From IMG/VR virus record IMGVR_UViG_3300033232_000045, positions 1 through 64,000 of that record: a DNA stretch of 64,000 nt. One strand, given 5' to 3'. This DNA is from a virus. Every line of letters starts with the position of its first letter. The first letter of the stretch is position 1. Below the pieces are notes generated by a model. That model was not told where the DNA came from and ran no database searches. It saw only the letters and a program-made list of their open reading frames with translations. Made by a program: the position numbers and the translations under genes. Below, piece by piece: positions 20,138 through 36,492 of this stretch.

Positions 20138-23100
20138 ATGTCGCTGCGCGCCGGTACGATTCACATTGAGCTTGACCTGGACAATGGAAAGTTCAGACAG
20201 CGTGTCGTTGATACGACCGGCGCATTGCGCAGACTTGAGCGCGATCTTGGCACGACCGCGAAGGGCGTCAAGAATGTCGAGCACCACTTCGCCAGTTTGG
20301 GTTCGCGCTTCCGCAGGCTCGCAATCACAGTCGCATCGCTGAAGTATACCTTCGGCGACTTCAAGAATATTATCGCTGCGCCGGTCGGCGCCATCACAAA
20401 AGCGTCCGGCGAGATTGAGCGCATGACGATGCTCATGTCCGGACTCTCGAAAGAGACGGATGAGCTCAAGCGCAAGCAGGAGGGACTTGCTGGAACCAAG
20501 TTCATATTCGACCTTGCAAAGACTTCGCCGTTCGAAGTTAATGCCCTGTCTGACTCCTTCGTCAAATTCAAAGCTGCCGGTCTCGACCCGACCAACGGCT
20601 CGCTGAAGACGCTCGTTGACTCGGTGGCGCGCTTTGGCGGCTCCTCCGAACACCTGAAGCGCGCCTCCGTCGCCATTCAGCAGATGGGGGGCAAAGGCGT
20701 CGTATCGATGGAAGAGCTGCGCCAACAGCTCGGAGAAGCCGTCCCCTCAGCGATCAGGGCGATGGCGACGGGCACCGGCATGGCGATGGGCGATCTGGTC
20801 AAGCAAATCTCCAGAGGCTCGGTCGAGGCGACCGCAGCGCTTGAGCGCATGTTCGCCGTTCTGAAGTTCGAGAATGACGGCGCAGCCCTCAAGATGATGG
20901 AAACCTGGGTTGGTCAGGTCGAAAAGCTGAAGACCAACTGGACGCTGTTTTTGAACGAGGTGGGACAGAGTGGGGGCTTCTTCAGTGGTCTCACGGGGCA
21001 CCTCGAAAAGCTCAACGCGTTCCTGGAGAGCGACGTAGGGCGACAGTGGGCCTACGAAATCGGGAGGGGCATGAAAACCGCGCTGGACGCTGTGGTTGCG
21101 TTCGGCCAGATGGCGGTAAAGTATTGGGACTTGATAAAAGGCGCAACGGAAGCATTGATCGCCCTGTGGGCCGGCGGCAAGCTGATCGCCGGAATCAGCG
21201 CGGCAAAGAAAATCTACGGAACGTTCGTCACCACGTATCTCGCAGGCGCAAAAGCAATGTACGCCGAGGGGAAGAAAGGCGCAGCGGAATCAGTAGCAAC
21301 AACCATTGCCGGCAAGCGCGCTGAAATCCTGGCGCACGCAAAGGCGAACGCCCAGAAAATTGCCGATGACTCCCGCGCCGCAGCGGTTCAACTTAACGCG
21401 AACCGTGCGAAGTACGCGGCGCTATCGGCAGAGGCGGCGGCGTACAGGGCGAAAGAATTGGCAGCAGCGAAGACGGAGGTCGTTGCTGTAGCAAAGTACG
21501 GAGAATATGCCGGCAAAATTCATGCGCAGCGTCAGCGCGAGATGAGAATTGCCTATGGTGAGCGCGCGATGGCGGCTGAGAGGGCCGCAGCGCGAATCAA
21601 GGCGGCAGAGGCAGGCGTTCTAACCACATTGCACACTCACACCGCAAGGCTGCGCCAAAACACCCAAGTCGCCACCGCGCAACTTGGACTACTTGCACGA
21701 ACCGGGGTATCAGCCGGGTCGAAACTTGCCGGGGCAATGAACCTGGCTCGCGGCGCAGTTGGGTTGCTTGGTGGTCCGATTGGCATCATCACCACCCTGC
21801 TGTCTTTTGGCGCGACCGCATGGCTCATGTGGGGCAACAAGGCGGACGAGGCGACCGGGAAGGCAAAGGAGGGTCTCCAGGCGGTCAAGGATGGCTACGC
21901 CACGCTTGAGCATGCGCAGGCGATGGCGAAGCGCATTCTCGCTGTCGAAACGGAAATCGCCGAGAAGAAGAAGCTGATTTCCGAGGCGGGCAACAACTTC
22001 AACATGACGAACACCGTCACTGCGGCGGAGGCGAAGCTCGCCGAGCTGAAAAAGGAGCTTGCCGACCTTCGCAAGAACACCGGGGAGGCGTTCAAGCAGG
22101 GTACAGAGGCGTCCCTCGACAGGTCTGTCCAAAACATGCTGAGAAGGACTGACGCTGTCCTTGCCGAGTACAAGCGCTCCGTCGACAAGACATACCACGC
22201 AGAACTGGAAGCGCTCGAAGCGAAACACAAGGCGCAAAACACCAGCGAAGACAAGGCGGCGCAGGAGCGTTCCGCCTTGATGCGGGAGCACTCCAAAGCC
22301 TACCACGAGAAAGAGCTAGAGCAGCTCGTCGGGCAGCGCGAGTACCTTGAAAAGGCGATGAAAGACGCGGCGCCGGCAGCCGGTAGCGACAACTTCAAGG
22401 CGTTCGAGCGTCAACTTGACGCGCTTGACGCGCGCATTGCGCAGTCGAGGGAGAGCGCAAGACAGGCGAGCACGATTGGCACCCAAACCAAGCTGATCAG
22501 TATGTCCGGCGGAGAGGGTAAAGATGGTGTGGCGGGCCATCGCCCTATCCTTGGATTCATCGAGTCGATGACCGAGAAGATTGCCGGACTCAACGCCGAG
22601 CTAAACAAGAAAGGCGACGGCGATGCCGCCAAGCTCCTTGAAAGTCTGAAAGGCGACAAGTACACCTCGGGCAAGAATAAGGCGACCTCGGCAGAGCTTG
22701 AAGAGGCGGAGAGGAAGATTTTCGAGTACAAGGCGCTGAAGGATTCGCTCGTCGTCAATAAGGATGCCGACCGCATGCTGGAGCGCTCCAGCGAGCTACT
22801 TGACGCAATCAGCGTCAAGTCTGAGGGCGGCTCGGGCGCAATTGCCAATATGCGCACCGAGATTGAAAAGCTTCTCGAAACGACAAACGACGTTGACGCG
22901 GTGAATAAATTTATCGGCGCACTGAAGCGGCTCGACGAGTACGACAAGCTGCTGGCTCAGGATAATGCCGACAAGGGCCACAAGATCGCCCTCGACTACA
23001 AGGAGAAGGCTGCTGCCATCTACCGTTCGCTGTCAAATGACAAGCGGGCAATCATGATGGAAGAGGTCCAGCTTGAGTTCGAGAAGGCACAGGCAGAAAT

Positions 23101-23833
23101 CAGGCTCAGAAAGCTCGGCCCAGAGGCAGAAATGGAGGCGCTGAACGCGCTTCTTGACTGGAAGAAGGCGCGCCTTGAACAGGCGAACCGTGATCTGGAA
23201 ACGCCCATGCAGAAGATGCTGCGCGACTGGGAAGACGTGACTGGCGCAATGGAAAAGGCGACCGCGAACTGGCTCGACCGGGGCATCGACGGGCTTGCCG
23301 AATTCGCCAAGACGGGCAAGCTCAACTTCCGCGAGTTCACCGTCAGCATTCTCGAAGACCTACTGAAGATTCAGCTTCGCGCAATGGCAGTCAAGATGCT
23401 CGGCGGAACGGGTGGGGGCGGCGCGACCGGCGCGACCGGCGGCATCGGCGGCGCAATCGGCGGTTTTATCACCAGCCTGTTTGCGAATGGCGGAATCATG
23501 ACAAGCGCAGGCTCGATGCCGCTCAAAATGTACTCAAACGGGGGCATCGCTAACTCTCCGCAGCTTGCCGTATTCGGGGAGGGGCGAAAGCCCGAAGCGT
23601 ACGTTCCGCTGCCTGACGGGCGCACGATCCCTGTGACCATGAGCGGCGGCGGCGGCAGCAATGTCATCATCAACATCGCGATCGACAACGGGGGCGGTGA
23701 GAAGTCCGACGCTGGCGGCGACGGGGGCGAAGCGCGCGCATTCTGGAAGGGCGTCGGCGACAAGGTCAAGAGCGTCGTGCGGCAGGAATTGGTTGAGCAA
23801 CAACGCCCTGGCGGTGTACTATATCGCCGATAG
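20138..23833 (+). CDS. tape measure protein
   Basis: 1231 aa, long Ala/Lys/Glu-rich helical regions, Gly-rich C-terminal part, position after G/GT. Confidence 0.9.
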   Translation: MSLRAGTIHIELDLDNGKFRQRVVDTTGALRRLERDLGTTAKGVKNVEHHFASLGSRFRRLAITVASLKYTFGDFKNIIAAPVGAITKASGEIERMTMLMSGLSKETDELKRKQEGLAGTKFIFDLAKTSPFEVNALSDSFVKFKAAGLDPTNGSLKTLVDSVARFGGSSEHLKRASVAIQQMGGKGVVSMEELRQQLGEAVPSAIRAMATGTGMAMGDLVKQISRGSVEATAALERMFAVLKFENDGAALKMMETWVGQVEKLKTNWTLFLNEVGQSGGFFSGLTGHLEKLNAFLESDVGRQWAYEIGRGMKTALDAVVAFGQMAVKYWDLIKGATEALIALWAGGKLIAGISAAKKIYGTFVTTYLAGAKAMYAEGKKGAAESVATTIAGKRAEILAHAKANAQKIADDSRAAAVQLNANRAKYAALSAEAAAYRAKELAAAKTEVVAVAKYGEYAGKIHAQRQREMRIAYGERAMAAERAAARIKAAEAGVLTTLHTHTARLRQNTQVATAQLGLLARTGVSAGSKLAGAMNLARGAVGLLGGPIGIITTLLSFGATAWLMWGNKADEATGKAKEGLQAVKDGYATLEHAQAMAKRILAVETEIAEKKKLISEAGNNFNMTNTVTAAEAKLAELKKELADLRKNTGEAFKQGTEASLDRSVQNMLRRTDAVLAEYKRSVDKTYHAELEALEAKHKAQNTSEDKAAQERSALMREHSKAYHEKELEQLVGQREYLEKAMKDAAPAAGSDNFKAFERQLDALDARIAQSRESARQASTIGTQTKLISMSGGEGKDGVAGHRPILGFIESMTEKIAGLNAELNKKGDGDAAKLLESLKGDKYTSGKNKATSAELEEAERKIFEYKALKDSLVVNKDADRMLERSSELLDAISVKSEGGSGAIANMRTEIEKLLETTNDVDAVNKFIGALKRLDEYDKLLAQDNADKGHKIALDYKEKAAAIYRSLSNDKRAIMMEEVQLEFEKAQAEIRLRKLGPEAEMEALNALLDWKKARLEQANRDLETPMQKMLRDWEDVTGAMEKATANWLDRGIDGLAEFAKTGKLNFREFTVSILEDLLKIQLRAMAVKMLGGTGGGGATGATGGIGGAIGGFITSLFANGGIMTSAGSMPLKMYSNGGIANSPQLAVFGEGRKPEAYVPLPDGRTIPVTMSGGGGSNVIINIAIDNGGGEKSDAGGDGGEARAFWKGVGDKVKSVVRQELVEQQRPGGVLYRR

Positions 23834-24193: not shown

Positions 24194-24211
24194 TAAGTCA
24201 CCCATGACTAT
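24194..24211 (+). promoter_or_regulatory. TAAGTCA-N4-TGAYTTA motif copy containing the gpL start codon
   Basis: TAAGTCACCCATGACTAT; the ATG at 24204 lies inside the motif. Confidence 0.65.
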
Positions 24212-24896
24212 TCAAGCTGAAATCCAGTCGCTTTCCCCGTCCGCAGTGGTTGAGCTGTTCACGCTCGACTCCACAAACCTGCCTGGTGGCACGCTGCTGC
24301 ACTTCCATGCTGGCACGAACGAGCTGCGCCAGCCCGTCATCTGGCAGGGCGTCGAATACTCGCCCCTGCCGATCGAGGCGGAGGGCTTTGACATTAGCAC
24401 ACAGGGTACGCTGCCGCGCCCGAAGATAAGGATTGCGAACATTGACGGACTCATGTCTGCCGCTGCACGCGAGTCAGACGACCTGATCGGTACGAAAGTG
24501 GTCCGCAAGCGAACCTTTGTCAAATACCTGGACGGGGCGAACTTCACCGGTGGCACCAATCCGGCGGCGAACCCCGACATGCACTTTCCCGACGATATCT
24601 GGTATGTCGACCAGAAGACGGCCGAGAACCGCTATGTCATTGAGTGGGAGCTGGCATCGGCGTTTGATCTTCAGGGGGTCACGTTGCCTGGGCGCCAGGT
24701 TGTCCAGAACTCATGCTGGTGGAGATATCGCGGGCCGGAATGCAACTACACGGGCGGCTACTTCGACAAGAACGACAGACAGACATCCGACCCCGCAAGT
24801 GACTTCTGCGCGAAGCGTCTCGCATCGTGTCGCGCCCGTCACGTCAATGTAATCGTGCCATTTGGTGGCTATCCCGGGTCGGTGCGCAATGGCTGA
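24204..24896 (+). CDS. minor tail protein, lambda gpL-like
   Basis: 230 aa; C-terminal Cys cluster C.WRYRG.EC.Y....C..RL..C typical of gpL. Confidence 0.8.
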   Translation: MTIQAEIQSLSPSAVVELFTLDSTNLPGGTLLHFHAGTNELRQPVIWQGVEYSPLPIEAEGFDISTQGTLPRPKIRIANIDGLMSAAARESDDLIGTKVVRKRTFVKYLDGANFTGGTNPAANPDMHFPDDIWYVDQKTAENRYVIEWELASAFDLQGVTLPGRQVVQNSCWWRYRGPECNYTGGYFDKNDRQTSDPASDFCAKRLASCRARHVNVIVPFGGYPGSVRNG

Positions 24897-25638
24897 GGTT
24901 GATTTTGGCGATCTGCTCGCGACCATGCGCAGCGCTGGTGAGCGCGCCTATCCGAACGAGGCGTGCGGGCTGGTTATCGCTGTCGGGAAAAAGTCGACTG
25001 CTGTCGAGTGCGCGAACATTTCGACCGAGCCGCGCTACAGATTCATGATCGACCCGAAGGATTACGCGAGGGCTGCCGACATGGGCGAGGTTATCGGTGT
25101 CTGGCACACGCACCCCGACCTGCCCCCGACTCCATCGCCAGCAGACAGGGTGGGATGCGAAAACTCAGGCGTGACGTGGTTCATCCTCGGGATTCACAAG
25201 GAGGGCGACAGGTTTGCCCATGCCGGTCCAAGCGTCACTGAGCCGACCGGTTTTGAAATGCCCTACGAGGGGCGTCCTTACGTCATGGGCGTGCTCGACT
25301 GCTACACAATTCTGCAGGACTTCTACAAGCGCGAATATGGGCTTGGGGTAACAGATTTCCCGCGCATCGAAGAAGACGGGCGCATGGGTTTTACCCGTTT
25401 CGTCGAGCGCTACGCGGACGAAGGCTTTGTCAGACTGATCGACAAAGGGCCCCAGCGCGGCGACGTGTTTCTGATCCAGTCCGGTCAGTGCGACGGCCCG
25501 AACCACATTGCCGTCTATCTGGGCGACGACATGATTCTTCACCACTGCCAAGACAGACTCTCCCGCAGGGATATCTATGGGGGCGGCTACTGGCATCGCC
25601 ACACAACCTACCACTTGAGGCACAAGACGCAATGTTGA
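24889..25638 (+). CDS. tail tip assembly protein, lambda gpK-like (JAB/MPN plus NlpC/P60)
   Basis: E.CG and HTHPDLPPTPSPAD JAMM motif; LDCYTIL and downstream His residues of NlpC/P60; start set at the ATG overlapping the gpL stop. Confidence 0.85.
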   Translation: MAEVDFGDLLATMRSAGERAYPNEACGLVIAVGKKSTAVECANISTEPRYRFMIDPKDYARAADMGEVIGVWHTHPDLPPTPSPADRVGCENSGVTWFILGIHKEGDRFAHAGPSVTEPTGFEMPYEGRPYVMGVLDCYTILQDFYKREYGLGVTDFPRIEEDGRMGFTRFVERYADEGFVRLIDKGPQRGDVFLIQSGQCDGPNHIAVYLGDDMILHHCQDRLSRRDIYGGGYWHRHTTYHLRHKTQC

Positions 25639-26231
25639 CCAAGGTCATCCTCGAAGGCGAAATGGGAAAGAAGTTCGGACGCGAATGGTCGTTCGATATT
25701 TCATCGCCCGCCGAAGCGCTGCGCATGGTTGACGCGAACAATCCAGGCGTATTCATCTGGATCAAGTCGAACTTGGCGAAATACGAGGCGTACCGTGTTG
25801 TCTGCAAGTACGAGGACGGCAGGGAGGAGAGTCTTGACAAGGACTCATACATTCTCCAGGGCAAGCCCGCCGAGATTCGCTTCGTCCCGCTCATCGAGGG
25901 CGCTGGTGGAAAGTGGGGCACCGCCATTCTTGGCGCCATTCTGATTGTTGTCGGATACGCGATCATTGCTTTCACCTCCGGGTTCGGCGGCGTAATTGGC
26001 TCGTACATGATTCAGGCGGGCGTGTCGATGATGATCGGCGGCATTATCCAGGCGCTCACGACGCAGCCAAAAAAGGGCGACGAGGCACAGCGCAAAGACA
26101 TGACATCCCACTTCTTCGACGGCCCGGTGAACACGACGGAGCAGGGCGTCCCTGTCCAGCTCATCTACGGTGAGGTGCTGGTGGGTTCCCATGCAATTTC
26201 TGCGGAAGTGACCGTAGATCAACTGATGTAA
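25632..26231 (+). CDS. tail assembly protein, lambda gpI-like
   Basis: ORF 25488-26231 trimmed to ATG 25632 (MLTKVILEG...); central Gly-rich hydrophobic segment; synteny. Confidence 0.75.
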   Translation: MLTKVILEGEMGKKFGREWSFDISSPAEALRMVDANNPGVFIWIKSNLAKYEAYRVVCKYEDGREESLDKDSYILQGKPAEIRFVPLIEGAGGKWGTAILGAILIVVGYAIIAFTSGFGGVIGSYMIQAGVSMMIGGIIQALTTQPKKGDEAQRKDMTSHFFDGPVNTTEQGVPVQLIYGEVLVGSHAISAEVTVDQLM

Positions 26232-26243
26232 GGCGGCAAGAAT

Positions 26244-29200
26244 ATGGCTGACGAAGACAAGAAGACCGTGGCAATGATCGGTGGTGCTGGCGGGGGCGGG
26301 TGCTTCAGGGCTGGCGCGCGAATCCTGCTTGAACACGGAAAGACCGCAGCGATCGAAACGCTTAAGGCGGGCGACGAGGTTCTGGCGTTCGATGAGGACG
26401 GCAAGATTCACCTCGCAAAGGTCACGAAGGTCCACTATCACGCGGACCCACAGCCAATTCTGAAGGTCAAGTTCTGGCGCGGGGAGACCCATATTACTCC
26501 GAACCATTGGGTGCTCAACCAGTACGCCTCGTTCGTCGAAATGGGAAGCCTGACCGAGCATGACGCTCTCGTTGACGGCATGGGACACCTTCGTCCTATC
26601 GTCGGTGCCGAGTTGATTGGCTACGAGCCCGTCTGGAACTTGACGGTCGAGCCGCATCACACCTTTATCTGTGATGGCGTCCGCGTGCATAACGGGGGCC
26701 ATCGTGAGCGCTACCCGGTCATTGCCGGGGCTGGCGGCGGTGGCGGTAGCAAAGGCGGCGGCGGGGCGGTTGAAGACCCCGACAGCCTGCAATCGCGTGC
26801 GATGGTTTCGCTGCTCGACCTTGTTGGAGAGGGCGAGATTGGCGGCTTGATGGCTGGCGGACAGTCAATCTTTCTAAACGACACCCCGCTGCAGAACGCG
26901 AACGGAACGTACAACTTCAATGGCGTGACCTGGGCGGCACGCAATGGCACGCAGAACCAGACGCCGATCGAGGGTCACTCCGATATCGAAACACCTGCGG
27001 TCGTCGGGACTCAGGTCAAGTACGATATGCCGAAGACGGTCACGATTACCAACCCCAACGTCGACAAGATTCGGGCGATCGTGACCTTTCCGTCGCTTGC
27101 GTCGACGAATACCAAGACCGGCGACATTCACGGAACGACCGTTCAATACAAGTTTCAAATCTCGGCGGACGGCGGACCATTTAACGATGTCATTGCCTCG
27201 ACCTCGCTCTTTCCCGCGACCGGGGCGCAAACGACTGAATACGGCGCAACCCAGACGCTCTACAATTCGTCGACGGACGAAAACTACACCGTAACCCCGG
27301 TGGTTGCCGTTGTGGGCGAAATCTACGACGCTGACGCACTCGGCATAGGCGTAACCATTACGGCAAGCTACAGTGACCCCAATGTCAACACTATTGGCGA
27401 CAACTGGGACTACTGGACTGGATCGGTAGAGCTTCAGCCGCAAGTGCATAACGGGGCGGCATGGGTCAATCACGGCGGAACAGTCAAGCTCAACTATCAG
27501 GATACGTGGAACAATTATCAAGCCACGAGCCCATCAGTCTTCCATTCCGTTGACGGATACAAAAAGATTCGCTTCGTCGTCGTCGGCGCGAGCAACCTTG
27601 CAGGCATTAAACTGACTGACTTCAAGAAGTCTTCCGTGACATCGACGATCACCGTCACGGGCAAGTCGCGCTCACGCTACCAGCGCAGCCACATGCTGAC
27701 GCTGCCCAAGCCCGCGACAGGCTGGAACCTGAGAATGGTCAGGCTGACGCCCGACTCTGAGGCCGCGACGCTCGCCAATGACACCTACTTTGACAGCTAC
27801 GTCGAGATTGTCGATAGCAAGCTGTCGTATCCGAACTCTGCACTGATCGGCGTCAGGATTGACTCGTCTCAGTTCAACCAGATTCCGCGACGCTCGTACT
27901 TGGTGAGCGGGCTCTACATTAAGGTTCCGTCCAACTATAACCCCGCGACCAGACTGTACAGCGGCGTGTGGGATGGCACCTTCAAGATCGCGGTGTCGAA
28001 CAATCCGGCGTGGGTGCTCTACGACATTCTGACCAACGGCAGATATGGACTGGGGCAGTTCATCACGTCCGCACAGGTCGATAAGGCGAAGCTCTACCAG
28101 ATCGGGCGCTATTGCGATGAGCTGGTGCCTGACGGGTTTGGGCGCTATGAGCCGCGCTTCACCCTGAACACCGCGATCCAGTCGATCCAGGAGGCATACA
28201 GGCTGATCGCAAACATCACTTCAGTCTTCCGTGGGATGGCGTTCTGGAACGGCGGGATGGTCGGATTCACCCAGGACGCCCCCTCAGGCGTGAGCATGGA
28301 GTACAACAATGCGAACGTCATCGACGGCATGTTCAACTACACGGGCTCGTCGCGAAAGGACAGGCATTCTGTCGTCCTGGTGACATGGAACGACCCAACG
28401 GAGAATTACAAGCGAAAGGTCGAGTACATCGAAGACCCGGGTCTCGTCGCGAAGTACGGCATTCGCAAGGCGGACACAGTCGCGTTCGGATGTACCAGTC
28501 GCGGTCAAGCGCACCGTCTCGGCAAGTGGATTCTCTACACCGAGCGTGACGAGTCCAATGTCATCAGCTTCAAGGTCGGGATTGACTCCGCGCTTGTCAT
28601 TCCTGGGGAGGTCATTCGCATCGCCGACCAGTACCGCTCCGGGAAGCGCATGGGCGGGCGCCTGCTCGCCGCCACAACGACCTCCGCGACGCTCGACGCC
28701 CCCGTAACGTTGTCCGGCAGCGGCGCGAGTCTGTCGGTCAGGCTGCCCGATGGGACCTTCGCGGACAGGGTGATCCTGGAGGCGCCTGGCACGCGCAACG
28801 TCGTGACGTGGGCCGACCCGCTGCCCGACCTTCCTGTGCCGAACGCCGTCTGGATAATTTCCGAGGTCTCGCTTGAGCCGATGATGGCGCGGGTGGTCGG
28901 GATCACGCAAGATGGCGAATCGAAAAACACGTTCGTCATCAGCGCGATTGAGCACAACCCGAACAAGTACGGCGCCATTGAACTTGGGCTGACCCTTGAA
29001 AGGCCGAACAACAGCCTTCTCAGCATCAGCTCGGTAGTGACGCCCGAAGACTTCAAGGTCACGGAATCCGCGTACCTCGCTGCACCCAGCACGCCCGGAT
29101 TCAAGATGCACGTTTCGTGGTTCGGAAGCGCATCGTCCTACGAGCTTCAATGGCGTCGGTCCGACAGTGCAACGTCCAACTGGGAGACCATCACGACGAA

Positions 29201-30686
29201 GTCGCTGTCTGTCGAGATTGACGGCATCAACCCAGGCACGCACGAGCTCAAGCTGGTCGCGCTCAACGCGATCGGAGGCGCCCGCTCTCAGCCGCTTGCC
29301 CTGTCCTTCAATGTTCTCGGACTGATTCCCGCACCTGAAAAGGTCGAGAACTTCGTGGTCGGCGTCAGAACGACCGACCTTCAGCTCCGCTGGTCGCCTG
29401 CAGAAGTGATCGGACCTGCGTTATACGAGGTTCGCGTAGGCCCATCTTGGGATGACGCGGAAGTCATCATGGCGGGGTTCAGCGGAAACACGATGATTCA
29501 CGACCAGAGTGAGGCGGGATCGTACCGCTATCATATTCGCTCGATCAACGGCGCGACCGGACAATACTCGAACGAGGTGACGACTGCCGTGTTCACCGTA
29601 GATGCGCCGGCGACCGTTTCTGGCTTCGACTGCGTTCAAAACGGAAGTCGCATCGAGTTTCGCTGGAATGCCAACCCTGAGCGCGGCATCGTCGGGTACG
29701 AGATTCGTGAAGGCACGACCTGGGCATCGTCCTCATTCGTGACGCAGGTCAACGCGACGACCTACTCGACCCCTGCCAACTCGGTCGAGGGCGCGCGCAC
29801 CTTTCTGATCAAGGCGATTGTCGCACCCGGAGTCTATTCGGATGTCGCCACGTTCTCGACAACCGAAGTGGCAAAGTCGTCTGACCGCAACGTTATCGTC
29901 ACGGTCGATGAATGGGCGACGGGCTGGCTCGGCTCCAAGTTTAACGTCTCGACCTTCGAGGATGACCTCGTTCTCGACCCCGGCAAGACCTATGGAGAGT
30001 ACACATGGGGCGTTTCGCTGCCGCAGACGTATCGCGCCCGCAACTCGGTACACTCGACGTTTGACGCCCTAATCGCAGACACGACAACTTGGGGCACCGC
30101 ATCTTATCGCTGGGTTGATCCGCAGTCTGGGCGCTCATGGATTATCACGGGCGACCTGGCAGCGGTCGATATTACCTACTACATTTCGAAGTTCGTCGGG
30201 CTCAACCCATCCTACATTGAGGGCTTCGGACTGAACGCCGAGACGGTCGGCGTAAACGGCACAGTCGCGACCCAGGCGACAGGGTTGACATACGATGCTG
30301 GTCGATTCCTGAAGGGCGCCTACATCAGCGACTTCACACGCCTGAACTGGAATATTACCGTCCCGGAGACCTTCAGCAAGACGTTCTGGGCGATCCCCAA
30401 GTCGATCGTCGGGAATCAAGTCTACCTCTCCGCAGAGACCGCCAGCGGGCTTCACCTCATGGTTGGTCACGACGCCGTGAATGGCTGGTTCTACCTGGAG
30501 GACAGCATGGGCCAGAAGATTACCGTTCCGTACACTATCGAGCCGGAAGATCGGGTGCTGGTCGGAATCGTGCAAACAGCAAGTGAGCGCAAGCTGCATA
30601 TCGGAAGGCTGAACGATGTTCCGGCAAGCGCTTCTGCCGCGCACCTCCCGCTCGGGCCGGTCACCAAAATCAAGCTGCATCAGTAA
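26244..30686 (+). CDS. central tail fibre / host specificity protein, lambda gpJ-like, with an inserted N-terminal Hint domain
   Basis: 1480 aa; after the insert the sequence SLQSRAMVSLLDLVGEGEIGG matches the gpJ N-terminal pattern; fibronectin-like repeats; synteny after gpI. Confidence 0.9.
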   Translation: MADEDKKTVAMIGGAGGGGCFRAGARILLEHGKTAAIETLKAGDEVLAFDEDGKIHLAKVTKVHYHADPQPILKVKFWRGETHITPNHWVLNQYASFVEMGSLTEHDALVDGMGHLRPIVGAELIGYEPVWNLTVEPHHTFICDGVRVHNGGHRERYPVIAGAGGGGGSKGGGGAVEDPDSLQSRAMVSLLDLVGEGEIGGLMAGGQSIFLNDTPLQNANGTYNFNGVTWAARNGTQNQTPIEGHSDIETPAVVGTQVKYDMPKTVTITNPNVDKIRAIVTFPSLASTNTKTGDIHGTTVQYKFQISADGGPFNDVIASTSLFPATGAQTTEYGATQTLYNSSTDENYTVTPVVAVVGEIYDADALGIGVTITASYSDPNVNTIGDNWDYWTGSVELQPQVHNGAAWVNHGGTVKLNYQDTWNNYQATSPSVFHSVDGYKKIRFVVVGASNLAGIKLTDFKKSSVTSTITVTGKSRSRYQRSHMLTLPKPATGWNLRMVRLTPDSEAATLANDTYFDSYVEIVDSKLSYPNSALIGVRIDSSQFNQIPRRSYLVSGLYIKVPSNYNPATRLYSGVWDGTFKIAVSNNPAWVLYDILTNGRYGLGQFITSAQVDKAKLYQIGRYCDELVPDGFGRYEPRFTLNTAIQSIQEAYRLIANITSVFRGMAFWNGGMVGFTQDAPSGVSMEYNNANVIDGMFNYTGSSRKDRHSVVLVTWNDPTENYKRKVEYIEDPGLVAKYGIRKADTVAFGCTSRGQAHRLGKWILYTERDESNVISFKVGIDSALVIPGEVIRIADQYRSGKRMGGRLLAATTTSATLDAPVTLSGSGASLSVRLPDGTFADRVILEAPGTRNVVTWADPLPDLPVPNAVWIISEVSLEPMMARVVGITQDGESKNTFVISAIEHNPNKYGAIELGLTLERPNNSLLSISSVVTPEDFKVTESAYLAAPSTPGFKMHVSWFGSASSYELQWRRSDSATSNWETITTKSLSVEIDGINPGTHELKLVALNAIGGARSQPLALSFNVLGLIPAPEKVENFVVGVRTTDLQLRWSPAEVIGPALYEVRVGPSWDDAEVIMAGFSGNTMIHDQSEAGSYRYHIRSINGATGQYSNEVTTAVFTVDAPATVSGFDCVQNGSRIEFRWNANPERGIVGYEIREGTTWASSSFVTQVNATTYSTPANSVEGARTFLIKAIVAPGVYSDVATFSTTEVAKSSDRNVIVTVDEWATGWLGSKFNVSTFEDDLVLDPGKTYGEYTWGVSLPQTYRARNSVHSTFDALIADTTTWGTASYRWVDPQSGRSWIITGDLAAVDITYYISKFVGLNPSYIEGFGLNAETVGVNGTVATQATGLTYDAGRFLKGAYISDFTRLNWNITVPETFSKTFWAIPKSIVGNQVYLSAETASGLHLMVGHDAVNGWFYLEDSMGQKITVPYTIEPEDRVLVGIVQTASERKLHIGRLNDVPASASAAHLPLGPVTKIKLHQ
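26301..26693 (+). other. Hint / bacterial intein-like domain (aa 20-150 of the gpJ-like protein)
   Basis: Starts with Cys (GGGG|CFRAGARILL), block B ITPNHWV, C-terminal VWNLTVEPHHTFICDGVRVHN; the +1 residue is Gly. Confidence 0.7.
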
Positions 30687-31219: not shown

Positions 31220-34200
31220 GTGGCAACCACCGTAAGCGTCAGCAGTGTCCCGACGACGCCCACTTATCAGAAGTGGGCGGACCACGCGAGCACCGTCTGG
31301 GGCTCCAGCTACGGCACCAACAGGTGGCTAAGCACTACTGAGCCGACCGCATATTCTGCCGCGATCGCCGAAACGCTGACTGTTCGATTGGGCGCCATCA
31401 CTGACGCCTACGATTCACGATTATGGCGGGACGGCATCACCCCGGCCGGATACAGTCTCAACCAGAACCAGCCAGGCGAGAGCTTCTTCGCCACCAGGGC
31501 GGGGCCATTCGACTACCCCGAAGTCGTCAACGTCAGCAAGGTAATCGTTGCTGGCGACAATGACGCGGACGGCGGCTGGAACATGAACACCAACGTCGCA
31601 GTAGACCATACCGCAGGCGCGATCTTTGCCGTGTTCATGCGCAAGATGACAATCGAGGGGACGGGCTACTGGGGGCTGTATTCAAATGGCACGGCGCACG
31701 TCTATAAACTCGACGGAGTAGCAAACAATAACCCCTACTTCTGGGCGTCCGACCTGCCCAACACAAACGACTGGTTCCTGGTAGTCGGGTACGTGCATGG
31801 AAGTGCATACGCTGGCGGCAGCGCCGGGGTTACAGGCGTCTACAACCTGTCTGGAAGCAAGGTGGCAGGCGGGAACGAGTTCAAGTGGGTCGCGGGGACA
31901 ACCCTGGCGCGACACCGCTGCTACCACTACTACAACGTCAATAGTCCTGTCGGGGAAGAGGTGCAGTACAGTACCCGCCCCGTCATCATCCCGTGCTCGG
32001 TCGCTGAAGCGCCTGGGAAGATTGCCGCGATCCTGAACAATGCGGGGAGAACGCTGGACAATGTGACATCGTTCCAGAGGGCGCTTGCCGATTCCCTCTC
32101 TATTGTCGACGCTGGAGCGCACGGGGTCGGCAAAGCCCAGAGCGAATCAATCGACATCCTCGGCTCCAGCTATGACTGGCGCAGGTTTCCGACCACATGG
32201 GCCGGCGCCACGAGCTACGACTGGACAGGAACTGATGCCTCACGCTTCGGCTATGGCTTTCTGATCATCAGGGGGTTCATGGAGTCGATCGGCGTTTCGG
32301 AGCTTGAGGCAAACACGGTTAGCAAGAAGCTAGCAGACGCACTTGTCATTGCGGAATCACGGGTGTCCGGGTTCGCAAAGGGCATCGCGGAGCACATCAA
32401 CGCGACCCCTGCGACACTCAGCTTTGACGGCGTAGATGGCGCAATGACCGCCCTGAACAGCCCCTCGTTGCAGGTCATTGGCGATCTGACCATTGAAATG
32501 TGGCTGTATCCGACCGACATCGCGGTATCGCGCCAAAACCCTATCAACAAGGCGTTTGGCGGCGAATACACCGTCACGCAGGAGACGGGTGGGTCTCTCT
32601 CATTCTATTGGGGCACGGCCGGGGGAAACACCACACCATATCAAGGCTTTGGCTCGTCAAGGGTCACACAGGGAAAGTGGAACCACTGCGTTCTGCGTAG
32701 AAAGCTGGGTGACGACGGATTCTTAAAATGGACGATCAATGGTGTCTCAAACTCCGGGACTCCAGGATACGCAGAAGCGGTTGCGTCGCCGACCAACGTG
32801 ACGATCGGCACTGGCTACGCGGGCAAATACAGGGGCATGATCGACAATGTGCGCATCTACAATCGCGCCCTGACCGATCAGGAGGTTGTCGAGCATCGGC
32901 AGGGGCTCTTCCTGGGTGACGCCGGCCTGGTCGCATCCTGGGGCTTTGACGAAGATGGTGCGATCGCCTATGACGGCAGCGGAAATGGCAACCACGGGGC
33001 GCTGACGGGCTCGGTCACGCGCGCCGAGATTGCGGAGTACGCGAATAGCATGGTCGTGCCAAAATCTGAAGTATTCGCGGTCACGGACGCAGGCGCGAAG
33101 CAGTTCTCCGCGAATAAGGTGGAGGTACTTGCGGTTTCGGAGGCGTACTCGCGCATCGCAGATTTCAGCAGGGCGCTTGCGGAGTCGGTAGGCATTGCGG
33201 AAAGCAGCAGCAAGGGCACCTCGGTCGTCAGGTCAGAGTCCGTATCGGTGACAGAGGCAACCGGGAAGGACGCGTCCTCGGAGCACGCCAGTTCGCTCGC
33301 GATTTCAGAAGACGTGCTCAAGTCGCAACTGCTCGCGCTGGCTGACGCATTTAACATTCTGGGCTCCGGCTACGATTGGACCAACGCAGGGTTTGATTGG
33401 GCGTCTGCGGTAGACAAATCGTGGGTCGCCAACGGTGGGTTCTCGACTGGCACCACCAAGCGGCTGACGGACTCGGTTGCCGTTACGGAGTCGTACGGTC
33501 GCGCTGCATCCTTTGCCCGTCAGGTCGCGGAAGCGCTGGCGGTGGCAGATGGCACAGCCAAGAGCGCCAGCCTGACACTTGCAGAGTCGGTTTCGGTGCT
33601 GGAGGCGATCGTCAACGGGTTCGATATCTTCCGCGAATTAGCCGAATCGCTTGGAGTTACCGACTCAGCGGGCAAAGTCGCCGTGTTCGAGCGCATTGTC
33701 GCCGAGATATTCGCTATTGCGGAAATGCGCGCATCGTCATCTTCAATTGCGAAGGGCGAGTCGTTTGCGATTTCCGAATCCAACTCAAAGAGCGCCGGAA
33801 AGCCGATAGGCGAAGTGCTGGGGGTATCAGAGGCAAACTCAAAGGCTTCAGGCAAGAACGAATCCCAGACACTCGCTATCGCGGAGCAGTACGGGTCCGC
33901 AGCCCAGTTCGCCCGCGCATTCGCGGAGACGCTTGGGGTCGTCGAGTCATTCGTGAAAGTCGCAGAGTTCAATCGCGCACTTGCGGAAGCGCTATCGCTC
34001 GCCGAGTCAAGCGCGAAATACACGACGAAGCCTGTACTTGAGTCGATCGCGGTCGCGGAGGCAATTCAGAAGGCGTCATCGATCCTGAAGGCCGAGTCGT
34101 TCGCCCTGGCGGAGGCGTTCGGACGCAATGCGGTTTTCAGCAGGGCGATCGCCGAGGGGCTGTCCGTCGCCGAAGCGCTGAAGAAAACCACATCGGTATC

Positions 34201-34693
34201 GAAGGCGGAGGCGCTTTCCATCGGTGACGAGCTGCGCAGAAACTCCCAGGCGGTGATTTCCGACATCCTGATCAACTCGGGCGACATCACGCTTGAGCGG
34301 TTCACGACCATGCTTGCAGAAGCGCAAGCGCCAGGGTACGGCCCCTTCACCCAGTTCAGCGAAGGCGACCACGAATACCAGAGCGCAATCTTCAAGGCGG
34401 TCATTACGGCACAAAATGGCGCGTCAACACGTCTGACCGACCTGAGCGTCGGAATTGACGTGCCTGACGTGTTCGACAACGGAACGACGGCAGTGACCGA
34501 TCAAGGCGCCACGGTATTCTTCACAAGGCATTTTTACGAGAAGCCCGAAGTGAACGTGTCGCTCAAAGGCGGCACGATCTTCGCCATCCCGCGAGTGACA
34601 AGCATCGAGAAGGACAGATTTACGGTCGAGCTCATCGACGCGCTCGGAAACAAGGTTCCCGGCACGCTAACGTGGGCAGCACAAGGATATTGA
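31220..34693 (+). CDS. large tail fibre protein with LamG/concanavalin-like domain and a repeat array
   Basis: GTG start; LamG-type segment LTIEMWLYPTD...GKWNHCVL...IDNVRIYNRALTDQEVVEH; about 19 repeats of 18-20 aa with core AE.h.h.E. Confidence 0.8.
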   Translation: MATTVSVSSVPTTPTYQKWADHASTVWGSSYGTNRWLSTTEPTAYSAAIAETLTVRLGAITDAYDSRLWRDGITPAGYSLNQNQPGESFFATRAGPFDYPEVVNVSKVIVAGDNDADGGWNMNTNVAVDHTAGAIFAVFMRKMTIEGTGYWGLYSNGTAHVYKLDGVANNNPYFWASDLPNTNDWFLVVGYVHGSAYAGGSAGVTGVYNLSGSKVAGGNEFKWVAGTTLARHRCYHYYNVNSPVGEEVQYSTRPVIIPCSVAEAPGKIAAILNNAGRTLDNVTSFQRALADSLSIVDAGAHGVGKAQSESIDILGSSYDWRRFPTTWAGATSYDWTGTDASRFGYGFLIIRGFMESIGVSELEANTVSKKLADALVIAESRVSGFAKGIAEHINATPATLSFDGVDGAMTALNSPSLQVIGDLTIEMWLYPTDIAVSRQNPINKAFGGEYTVTQETGGSLSFYWGTAGGNTTPYQGFGSSRVTQGKWNHCVLRRKLGDDGFLKWTINGVSNSGTPGYAEAVASPTNVTIGTGYAGKYRGMIDNVRIYNRALTDQEVVEHRQGLFLGDAGLVASWGFDEDGAIAYDGSGNGNHGALTGSVTRAEIAEYANSMVVPKSEVFAVTDAGAKQFSANKVEVLAVSEAYSRIADFSRALAESVGIAESSSKGTSVVRSESVSVTEATGKDASSEHASSLAISEDVLKSQLLALADAFNILGSGYDWTNAGFDWASAVDKSWVANGGFSTGTTKRLTDSVAVTESYGRAASFARQVAEALAVADGTAKSASLTLAESVSVLEAIVNGFDIFRELAESLGVTDSAGKVAVFERIVAEIFAIAEMRASSSSIAKGESFAISESNSKSAGKPIGEVLGVSEANSKASGKNESQTLAIAEQYGSAAQFARAFAETLGVVESFVKVAEFNRALAEALSLAESSAKYTTKPVLESIAVAEAIQKASSILKAESFALAEAFGRNAVFSRAIAEGLSVAEALKKTTSVSKAEALSIGDELRRNSQAVISDILINSGDITLERFTTMLAEAQAPGYGPFTQFSEGDHEYQSAIFKAVITAQNGASTRLTDLSVGIDVPDVFDNGTTAVTDQGATVFFTRHFYEKPEVNVSLKGGTIFAIPRVTSIEKDRFTVELIDALGNKVPGTLTWAAQGY

Positions 34694-35277: not shown

Positions 35278-36492
35278 ATGCAATCCTTCACTGAAATCAC
35301 CGATCAGAACACGCTGCTTGAGTCCATCGGCATGCTGATGAACAACGACAAAACCGCCTTGTCATGCAGCTCTGGCACCGCGTTCCCGACCGCCAACCTC
35401 GAAGTTGGCATGTTCTGCTACCGGACGGACGAGTCGAAGTTGTACCAACTCAAGGACGCAACCCCCACCTGGAAGTTGATTTTCGACCTGTCGAAGACTG
35501 CAACAAATAAGGAATACGTCGATGCGGCGGTGAGCGGGGTCGACCTGTCAACCCGCGTTGCGAAGACGGGCGACACCATGACGGGCAACCTGACCGTGCC
35601 GGCGCTGAACTTGTCTGCCGACGCAAACAATAGATTCGAGCAGGGTAAGGCCGTGCTTCGCAGCGCCTCCCCAACTGTGTATTTCAGGGACACCGACCAT
35701 AGCAGCGCGATGTGGCACTGCAACTCCGGCAGAATGTATCTGTTAAGGGGCGCGGTAGACTCTGAAACCTGGACACAGGCGAATGGCAGTTGGCCGTTGG
35801 AAGTCAATCTGGACACCAACGAGGCGTTGTTTGGGGGCAAGGTACGAGTTCAGAGAAATCTCGGCACGACGTCGGACTATGCTCATAGTCAGCTTGAGCT
35901 TCGCTGCACGGATGGCGGCGATGTGTCGCTGGGATTCCATCGGTTAGGCTATACAGCATGCGCTCTAAGACACGAAAACAACGGACTCAGACTATCGGGG
36001 GTCGGCGAGTTCGCTACTGCGGATTTTATCGTGGATAACGTGATGGGAGTTTATAGTAGCGGCGTCGATGTTTTCAGAGTCAATTACACGAGAAACGGCG
36101 CGACACCATATTTCTATGTCAACACGGGAGGGGGGTACGGAACTTTTTCGGACGCCCGTTTGAAAAATTCTATCGAGCCGCTTTCGCCTGAGGCGGCAGT
36201 CACACTGATAAGGGGCGTGACGCCAGTTGAATTTAACTGGAACGAGGACGCGGGAGACGACAAGAGGGTAGGCGGGTTCCTAGCCCAGGACGTGTTAAGG
36301 CATGCCGTAACAGATGGGCAGAAAAACATTCTCACCCATTGGGAGACCTACGACGAGAGCGATCCAGAGTGCCCCAAGATGGGTCTATCCGACCATCGCA
36401 TGATTCCGTCTGTTGTTGCGGCGCTGCAACATGCGCTCGCTCGCATTGATGACCTCCAGACGCAGATTGACGCCTTGACCAAGACATCCTGA
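35278..36492 (+). CDS. tail fibre with C-terminal S74-type intramolecular chaperone (autoproteolytic) domain
   Basis: GDTMTGNL fibre motif; the C-terminal domain starts at SDARLKNSIEPL (Ser291, nt 36148) and ends with the helical ...ALARIDDLQTQIDALTK. Confidence 0.8.
   Translation: MQSFTEITDQNTLLESIGMLMNNDKTALSCSSGTAFPTANLEVGMFCYRTDESKLYQLKDATPTWKLIFDLSKTATNKEYVDAAVSGVDLSTRVAKTGDTMTGNLTVPALNLSADANNRFEQGKAVLRSASPTVYFRDTDHSSAMWHCNSGRMYLLRGAVDSETWTQANGSWPLEVNLDTNEALFGGKVRVQRNLGTTSDYAHSQLELRCTDGGDVSLGFHRLGYTACALRHENNGLRLSGVGEFATADFIVDNVMGVYSSGVDVFRVNYTRNGATPYFYVNTGGGYGTFSDARLKNSIEPLSPEAAVTLIRGVTPVEFNWNEDAGDDKRVGGFLAQDVLRHAVTDGQKNILTHWETYDESDPECPKMGLSDHRMIPSVVAALQHALARIDDLQTQIDALTKTS

Follow-up and report, generated by a model that had tools for sequence, protein, structure and literature searches.

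Why the tail tip protein of a lambda-like phage should begin with a domain of the intein fold is the question raised by a 64,000-nucleotide (nt) stretch of viral DNA (IMG/VR record IMGVR_UViG_3300033232_000045, positions 1 to 64,000), referred to here as the window. The open reading frame (ORF) at 26244..30686 on the plus strand encodes a J-type tail tip or central fibre protein of 1480 amino acids (aa) with a Hint domain at its N-terminus. An earlier note, made from the letters alone, had proposed a Hint or bacterial intein-like (BIL) mini-domain within the Gly-rich N-terminus of a gpJ-like protein; searches of Pfam and the Protein Data Bank (PDB), AlphaFold2 modelling followed by Foldseek, and comparison across the family all confirm that proposal. 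The domain is probably an optional, recombination-mobile and self-excising insertion of the type A BIL kind that occupies a Gly run of J.

The Hint Domain of J

The J frame is unbroken from its ATG, which is preceded by an AAGG motif, and its N-terminal 175 residues read, in order, MADEDKKTVAMIGGAGGGG, CFRAGARILLEHG, ITPNHWV, VWNLTVEPHHTFICDGVRVHN and GGHRERYPVIAGAGGGGGSKGGGG, after which AVEDPDSLQS comes. The first of these is a 19-aa leader, or 'N-extein' (26244..26300; this and all further features of J lie on the plus strand), which ends in the Gly run that provides the residue at -1 and which in alignment resembles the native N-terminus of Hint-less J proteins (M..I.GAGGGG). The mini-Hint domain, similar to type A BILs, extends from Cys20 to Asn150 (131 aa; 26301..26693); it starts with C20 and FRAGARILLEHG directly after GGGG, and closes with VRVH149-N150 ahead of G151. 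By sequence, the catalytic residue set is intact: the TGC codon of Cys20 (26301..26303) specifies the predicted block A nucleophile for an N-S acyl shift, the block B TPNH spans Thr85 to His88 (26496..26507) within the longer motif I84-T85-P-N-H88-W-V (26493-26513), and profile alignments to the Clostridium thermocellum BIL (PDB 2LWY) and the Mtu RecA mini-intein place blocks F and G at VWNLTVEPHHTFICDGVRVHN (26631..26693), which contains the terminal His149-Asn150 pair with the Asn150 codon at 26691-26693.

Gly151 is the +1 residue and opens the post-Hint linker GGHRERYPVIAGAGGGGGSKGGGG (26694..26765), defined by sequence and alignments; behind Gly151 the leader motif recurs (IAGAGGGG), and the native Gly/Lys run of J comes next. 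The domain is flanked by Gly runs, IGGAGGGG on the 5' side and IAGAGGGGGSKGGGG on the 3' side, and the motifs and bracketing runs quoted in the earlier note are all present where it had placed them. In the DNA, a repeat search finds these runs as a pair of 17-nt imperfect direct repeats, 82% identical and 444 nt apart; the left copy GGTGCTGGCGGGGGCGG (26283..26299) codes for GAGGGG, and the right copy is GGGGCTGGCGGCGGTGG (26727..26743). A foreign base composition of the cassette was considered and rejected, as the guanine-cytosine content of the Hint segment is 0.58 and that of its flanks 0.56-0.60.

Assignment of residues 20-150 to the Hint fold is confirmed far beyond chance, by hidden Markov models as well as by structure. 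Within the first 200 aa, the Pfam model Hint (PF01079) scores 30.3 bits against a cutoff of 29.7, over residues 17-70 only, and PT-HINT (PF07591) scores 29.6 bits against 27.7 over residues 35-152; PT-HINT is the sole Pfam model to span nearly the whole domain, and on full-length J its score is 25.3, under the cutoff. Hint_2 (PF13403; 23.5 bits against a cutoff of 28.4, residues 20-52 only), Intein_splicing, Vint and Hom_end_hint match the same 200 aa below threshold, as does the TIGR model intein_Nterm. A single-sequence search retrieves 2LWY at an E-value (E) of 2.5e-5 over residues 20-149, and a nine-sequence family profile searched against the PDB matches 2LWY over the whole domain (E 1e-11), followed by the Mtu RecA mini-intein (E 7e-9) and the Tetrahymena BUBL BIL2 (E 1.5e-8).

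An AlphaFold2 model built with 33 homologues predicts the domain with block means of 92-98 in the predicted local distance difference test (pLDDT) for residues 21-150; the leader (residues 1-16, pLDDT <50) and the post-Hint residues 159-200 are disordered. In Foldseek against the PDB, the top match is BIL2 (6Y75, E 4.6e-11), then 2LWY (E 1.8e-10, template modelling score 0.87, root mean square deviation 1.6 Å, 28% identity), and next Ssp DnaB, NrdJ-1, RecA, gp41-1 and Hedgehog, with the inteins at E 1e-9 to 1e-8; the probability is 1.00 for BIL, intein and Hedgehog structures alike. For the Hint domain, the PHROGs collection returns just a weak match to a family of unassigned function. An uncultured virus contributes the best match in BFVD, a 'putative gp62' that carries no annotation and is 40% identical; members of the family are therefore already in public databases, unrecognised.

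In the profile alignment, the final blocks read VYNFKV...LVHN in 2LWY and TYDLEV...VVHN in the Mtu RecA intein. The block-F position is Asn132 in the window, Asn in 2LWY and Asp in class 1 inteins, where this Asp couples the steps of splicing; across the nine-sequence alignment the Asn is invariant (VWNLTV or VYNLTV, against the TYDLEV of Mtu RecA), and so is TPNHWVLNQ around block B.

The remainder of the protein is a tail tip protein J by several measures. Pfam recognises FNIII-A_GpJ (PF24801; 1.9e-32, 112 bits) and Phage-tail_3 (PF13550; 4.8e-28, 98 bits) in its body, both of which exceed their cutoffs, and fn3; the NCBIfam model lambda_TipJ matches at E 6.8e-144, under an 'exception'-type cutoff, as expected of a distant relative. 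Lambda gpJ (8IYK) and the F2-pyocin J-like protein are matched in the PDB at E ~1e-130. Residues ~164 onward align with residue 7 onward of the pyocin protein, which in effect puts the domain at the N-terminus of J; the post-Hint sequence also aligns with the beginning of Hint-less J homologues, which bears out the expectation that the normal J N-terminus resumes behind the insert.

Distribution and Conservation of Hint-Bearing J Proteins

A survey of J homologues, which the earlier note had suggested, finds the insert to be widespread. A profile search run exhaustively over 1.84 billion representative proteins gives 149 clusters at E <= 1e-30. Among the 150 best-ranked clusters (at 50% identity), 70 are J proteins that carry the domain at residues ~5-150, so that at least 70 such clusters exist. 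Among the best 80 loci kept from 529 confirmed J relatives in IMG/VR, 41 (L001-L041) carry it, in one case (L033) interrupted by the contig end. With residues 1-250 as the query, ~40 metagenomic clusters join the domain to a J N-terminus, none of them informatively named, and many database entries for relatives are short fragments. The same query finds Hint-less J proteins that start M..IAGAGGGGGGKGGGG..TPTEA.DSL.S, an N-terminus which lines up exactly with the post-Hint sequence of the Hint-bearing ones. Bacterial genomes also contain Hint-bearing J genes (a 704-kb Castellaniella contig, a 130-kb contig of a betaproteobacterial metagenome-assembled genome (MAG), Oxalobacter, Desulfovibrionaceae and others), and the relatives extend over several host phyla. 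The domain is found in none of the 1,773 cultured-phage records that bear J, in which alignments begin only at residue ~176; a tblastn search of cultured phages with the Hint domain alone yields no J and one unrelated weak match, a P-loop protein of a Vibrio phage (E 2e-3), and identifies no isolate suited to experiments.

Conservation was counted over 67 J-type cluster representatives with an intact domain. Cys1 and the terminal [VIL]HN are present in 67/67, and likewise in 41/41 of the IMG/VR loci. Block B is TPNH in 53 of the 67 and another TxxH in 11, with the simple TxxH pattern unmatched in the other 3. The domain is 128-133 aa long throughout the family, with no endonuclease insert, as the earlier note had said, and is preceded by a leader of 7-33 aa (median 13). 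The residue at -1 is Gly in 65/67; L006 has Pro there. The +1 residue is Gly in 59, Ala in 4, Lys in 2, Gln in 1 and Tyr in 1; that a +1 nucleophile is lacking, as the earlier note had read from Gly151, thus extends to all 67, none having Cys, Ser or Thr. In the IMG/VR loci and the window together, +1 is Ala in 35, Gly in 3 and Lys, Ser and Thr in one each. Exceptions at +1 are Ser in L032 and Thr in L004 and L087, where canonical splicing is conceivable.

Median dN/dS (the ratio of nonsynonymous to synonymous divergence) over 81 pairs is 0.14 for the domain and 0.155 for the J body, that is, the domain is under purifying selection as strong as that on the body; a value of 0.14 means that the domain is translated and that its sequence matters. 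An internal translation start behind the domain was rejected, since none of 46 loci has an in-frame start with a Shine-Dalgarno (SD)-like motif 3' of it; a Hint-less J could therefore arise from these genes only by post-translational removal, if at all. In 44/46 loci the leader motif, [IVL]-x-G-[AS]-G-G, recurs after the domain; this second copy is missing in L002, L037 and many of the cluster representatives, which end HN/GGGGKG.

Optional Presence and Partly Separate Histories

The domain appears as a discrete cassette in a comparison of two closely related loci, one with it (L009) and one without (L054), which are 91.2% identical over 1410 nt upstream and 90.3% identical over 648 nt downstream. 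Across their first 57 aligned bases, a stretch that starts before the J initiation codon and reaches the Gly run, they do not differ at all; beyond it, L009 carries an extra 429 nt, of which the first codon is Cys, between 15-nt direct repeats (CGCAGGTGGTGGTGG and CGCAGGTGCTGGCGG), and L054 represents the empty site for this cassette. The next-nearest loci to L054 (L012, L013, L015 and L036, at 75-78% nt identity) all carry the domain, and the nearest other Hint-less loci (L048 and L049) are at 71%; loss of the domain from L054 by recombination between the repeats is the parsimonious reading, because its next-closest relatives are all Hint-bearing.

Divergence of the domain and of the J body, compared by pairwise identity and by synonymous divergence (dS), is only loosely coupled (Spearman 0.61). 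The domain is 88% identical between L009 and L027 and the body 51%; between L018 and L023 these values are 67% and 81%. In some pairs, such as L011 and L036, the body exceeds the domain several-fold in dS (2.4 against 0.65). From the loose coupling and these outliers, the histories of the domain and the J body are considered to be partly separate.

Proposed Excision of the Domain

Type A BILs end in His-Asn without a +1 nucleophile and cleave at both ends, forming an N-terminal thioester and cutting their C-terminus by Asn cyclisation; splicing is also possible if the liberated alpha-amine reacts with the thioester, but cleavage products predominate (PMC4031507, PMC7664689). The chemistry of the J domain is inferred by analogy with them. 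Cys20, aided by Thr85 and His88 of block B, would attack the carbonyl of Gly19 and produce a thioester between leader and Hint domain; Asn150, aided by His149, would cyclise to a succinimide, which would cut the bond between the domain and J and free the alpha-amine of Gly151. This amine may then attack the thioester and join the leader to J through Gly-Gly, a form of 'splicing' that needs no nucleophile, or the thioester may be hydrolysed and the leader lost. Gly at both -1 and +1 would be the least hindered pair for such direct aminolysis. By either route the domain would be removed, which would leave the mature J with a flexible N-terminus rich in Gly (...VIAGAGGGGGSKGGGG-AVEDPDSL...), as Hint-less J proteins have. 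The earlier note was right that canonical splicing is not expected; ligation of the flanks by aminolysis may still take place, as in type A BILs (PMC4031507). As the second leader motif is present in 44/46 loci, cleavage alone would restore a normal-looking N-terminus in most of them; in loci that lack this copy, splicing would restore the leader motif exactly.

Imperfect direct repeats of Gly codons flank the cassette, and homologous recombination can therefore add or delete it. The cassette, 444 nt in the window, would be gained or lost precisely, through recombination between co-infecting phages or from repeat to repeat, with no homing endonuclease. The existence of close relatives without the domain argues against a required role, and a role in tail assembly is possible. 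The suggestion that the module acts in assembly or DNA ejection found nothing in its support; the presence of the domain in some phages but not in their close relatives speaks for a dispensable module.

Several points weigh against a self-excising mobile element. Of the cultured phages searched, none carries a Hint-bearing J. The discordant divergence alone underlies the idea of 'selfish' spread, and mosaic recombination of the J body could mimic it; conservation and persistence in at least 70 clusters, despite the repeats, could equally mean that the phage benefits. In lambda, the N-terminal region of J and the Fe-S domain of gpL complete the HDII-insertion domain and so form an assembly interface, and the gpL Fe-S domain is surface-exposed (PMC10721106); a retained Hint domain is therefore not clearly excluded by packing. 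It is doubtful that the site is buried inside the tip complex, as had been assumed from the position of J. The steric argument that a buried J N-terminus forces removal of the domain was tried and is unsupported: the lambda papers put the gpL Fe-S domain at the outer surface and leave residue 1 of J unplaced.

Comparison with Known Hint Systems

Type A BIL domains were reportedly described by Amitai et al. in 2003 and Dassa et al. in 2004, and the C. thermocellum BIL 2LWY by Aranko et al. in 2013. On the features that can be compared, membership of the J domain in this class is supported by sequence: both have a Hint fold of ~130 aa without endonuclease, Cys1, TxxH and a C-terminal His-Asn, both lack a +1 nucleophile and have Asn at the block-F position, and both occur sporadically in a variable part of a surface-exposed protein. 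The margins are modest, in that 2LWY is the best PDB match (1e-11 against 7e-9 for RecA) and PT-HINT the best full-length Pfam model. The J domains differ in residing in a phage virion protein, whereas the hosts of BILs are bacterial secreted, adhesin and toxin proteins; they also stand at the extreme N-terminus behind a leader of 7-33 aa, have Gly on both sides of their junctions almost always, with a Gly run as the insertion site, and form a tight subfamily with 40-90% identity among members and ~28% to 2LWY.

Other Hint systems share fewer of these features. The class 1 mini-inteins (Ssp DnaB, Mtu RecA, Npu DnaE and gp41-1) have the same fold, the same blocks A, B, F and G, an in-frame mode of insertion with 'empty-site' alleles in close relatives, and are common in phage genes; the J domain differs in its lack of a +1 Cys, Ser or Thr, its block-F Asn, its position outside a conserved host motif, and the sub-threshold scores of the intein models. 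Type B BILs (Hint_2) are set apart by the intein-like block G (VRVHN) of the J domain, on which Hint_2 is sub-threshold. The BUBL BILs of Tetrahymena (6Y75 and 6TMM) give the best Foldseek match and are likewise preceded by Gly-Gly, with the thioester on a Gly carbonyl; in BUBL and Hedgehog, the flank transferred to a target is a folded ubiquitin-like or signalling domain, whereas that of J is a short disordered leader. The Hog domain of Hedgehog has a sterol-recognition region, which the J domain lacks; the J domain retains the terminal His-Asn and leads through a disordered Gly linker into the J body. The PT-HINT pretoxin domains of polymorphic toxins are similar as releasing domains of the BIL type, but in their large secreted host proteins they directly precede a C-terminal toxin module, and the J domain is not accompanied by a toxin. 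Peptidase_S74, the intramolecular chaperone of tail fibres and spikes, is a parallel in being an autoprocessing tail-protein domain that is removed after its job; it has an unrelated fold with a Ser-Lys dyad, a C-terminal position and a demonstrated chaperone role.

Alternative Explanations

An optional self-excising element ranks first among the explanations considered, and a domesticated maturation switch second. In the latter, the domain would be a pro-domain whose timed or conditional self-cleavage (triggered, for example, by redox state, metal or assembly) frees the J N-terminus for docking of gpL and gpI; this is regarded as a possible but rather unlikely account. It would suit the purifying selection on the domain, which matches that on J, its retention in at least 70 clusters (50% identity) from several host phyla though the repeats should ease its loss, and the 44/46 loci in which C-terminal cleavage alone would give J an N-terminus of native type; in addition, J contacts gpL in assembly through its N-terminal region (PMC10721106). 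Near-identical phage contigs with and without the domain speak against such a switch, as do the many confirmed J relatives without it (most of those in IMG/VR, where 41/80 of the best of 529 carry it, and all 1,773 cultured) and the lack of an accessory gene that co-varies with it in the loci inspected. The dN/dS ratio does not discriminate here, because an in-frame intein in an essential gene is also selected to stay excisable. If the domain were instead a conjugation module, in the manner of Hedgehog or the Tetrahymena BUBL proteins, an external nucleophile such as a Lys of a tail protein or an amine of the host envelope would take up the leader. The top fold match to BUBL BIL2 (6Y75), likewise preceded by Gly-Gly, the unhindered thioester that Gly at -1 would give, and related secreted proteins in which several Hint domains are separated only by 'KGG' spacers, so that the Hints and not an 'extein' seem to be the point, all lean this way. 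The part to be transferred, however, is a poorly conserved leader of 7-33 aa that mimics the normal J N-terminus, a Hedgehog-type reaction has no need of the terminal His-Asn that is conserved here, and no sterol-recognition or adaptor region follows the domain; conjugation is accordingly judged quite improbable.

The remaining explanations, like conjugation, trail behind the first two. Hint domains can be recruited as plain modules, and one that had lost its activity could persist in the virion as an extra N-terminal domain of J; such inert decoration is similarly improbable, because Cys and the terminal His-Asn are kept in all intact members, and TxxH in all but 3/67 that do not match the pattern, while other positions vary, which is not expected of an inert domain. 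A canonical class 1 mini-intein, splicing through a branched intermediate on a +1 Cys, Ser or Thr, would share the Hint fold, Cys1, TxxH and HN, and intein-less alleles as well as the three loci with Ser or Thr at +1 (L032; L004 and L087) could be cited for it; it is very unlikely, given Gly at +1 in the window and G, A, K, Q or Y in 67/67 representatives, Asn in place of the block-F Asp, an insertion site in a low-complexity leader with no conserved functional site, and Intein_splicing and intein_Nterm below threshold. That the gene is wrongly called, with the real J beginning after the domain and the upstream part separate or untranslated, is rejected as barely credible: the database entries of relatives are often short fragments, but in the window one frame runs from an ATG preceded by AAGG, no SD-linked in-frame start follows the domain in 46/46 loci, a dN/dS of 0.14 is that of a translated frame, and the fused architecture recurs in 70 full-length cluster representatives.

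Related Hint Domains in Tandem and in Other Proteins

Tandem double Hint domains are present in three J clusters (P0051, P0070 and P0128), separated only by the linker 'GGGGGKG' in the layout ...VHN, GGGGGKG, CF...VHN, GGGGGKSGGGG...EAPESLRS; they are consistent with repeated insertion into Gly runs. In P0030, a gpI-like protein reads in one frame straight into the leader, the Hint domain and the J N-terminus, and this may be a genuine I-Hint-J fusion or else an artefact of sequencing or of a frameshift. Arrays of 2-5 (up to 11) domains from the same Hint subfamily also occur, with 'KGG(GG)' spacers (P0052, P0090, L102, L107, L111, P0048 and P0050), in proteins of ~850-1100 aa with a signal peptide or transmembrane segment, for example from Gemmataceae, which display no obvious 'extein' to mature. 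More distant Gly-flanked Hint domains, with 27-34% identity and Q, D, E or K at +1, lie in the middle of proteins of 1700-2200 aa from candidate phyla radiation (CPR) bacteria, Omnitrophota and gammaproteobacterial MAGs (L092-L101, L103, L104, L106, L108-L110, L112, L115 and L116). Their flanks follow the pattern ...NLGSKGGSGGG/CF...YVHN/QKG..FPDTAYWNP..LPDNLTTW, and the region around them looks like the alpha-2-macroglobulin type.

A broader proposal, offered tentatively and with low confidence, is that Hint domains of the form Gly/Cys...His-Asn/Gly represent, instead of crippled inteins, a lineage specialised for traceless Gly-Gly ligation or transfer without side chains, which phages and the multi-Hint secreted proteins would use functionally. 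In phages, such a domain may serve the timed freeing or re-joining of the J N-terminus during tip assembly, or it may act as a thioester conjugation device at the tip.

The Tail Gene Cluster around J

The genes around J are a lambda-like siphovirus morphogenesis module in the order TMP-L-K-I-J, with terminase, portal, major capsid and tape measure genes further upstream. The tape measure protein (TMP) is encoded at 20138-23833, gpL with a Phage_tail_L domain at 24204-24896 and gpK with JAB and NlpC/P60 domains at 24862-25638 (plus strand). The gpI-like tail assembly gene (25488..26231, plus strand) matches phrog_32, 'tail assembly protein', at E 2e-50 over aa 49-245. This gene as listed shares ~150 nt with the gpK ORF, in another frame; its true start is probably downstream of 25488, as the phrog_32 match begins only at residue 49.

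Within J, residues ~319-471 (window ~27198-27656) comprise ~150 aa that match nothing in either lambda gpJ or the J-like protein of the F2 pyocin; the alignment to the PDB passes from target residue 159 to 163 over this region, which is probably an extra inserted domain beside FNIII-A. The gene after J (31220-34693, plus strand) encodes a 1157-aa protein with a Laminin_G_3 or concanavalin-like lectin domain and long repetitive runs rich in Ala, Glu and Ser; it probably serves as a side fibre or in receptor binding. Further downstream, a 404-aa protein (35278-36492, plus strand), whose residues 291-339 match the Peptidase_S74 'chaperone of endosialidase' domain, adds to this tail gene cluster another self-cleaving module, unrelated to the Hint domain.

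Novelty and Significance

The known hosts of such domains are mainly replication and packaging enzymes for inteins, and bacterial secreted or toxin proteins for BILs. In the literature searched for Hint, intein or BIL domains in J, tail tip and host-specificity proteins, only inteins in terminase, ribonucleotide reductase and helicase genes are found; with no report there and no cultured-phage record, the earlier impression that the arrangement had not been described for J-type proteins stands. Relative to the literature and databases searched, the features that appear to be new are the J N-terminus as the host site, the Gly/Gly junctions, the Gly-run insertion site with its repeats, the tandem doublets and the size of the family.

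The lambda-type tail tip protein J, a structural protein of the virion, thereby joins the hosts of intein-like autoprocessing domains. The domains constitute a large, previously unannotated Hint subfamily, in which Gly at both junctions is sterically ideal for ligation without a nucleophile; if they do splice efficiently, they would be attractive as tools for traceless protein ligation. For annotation, J proteins of metagenomic phages that start with a Hint domain should be read as precursors. With their occupied and empty alleles, Gly-codon repeats and tandem doublets, these genes provide a tractable system for the spread and persistence of an element that has no endonuclease.

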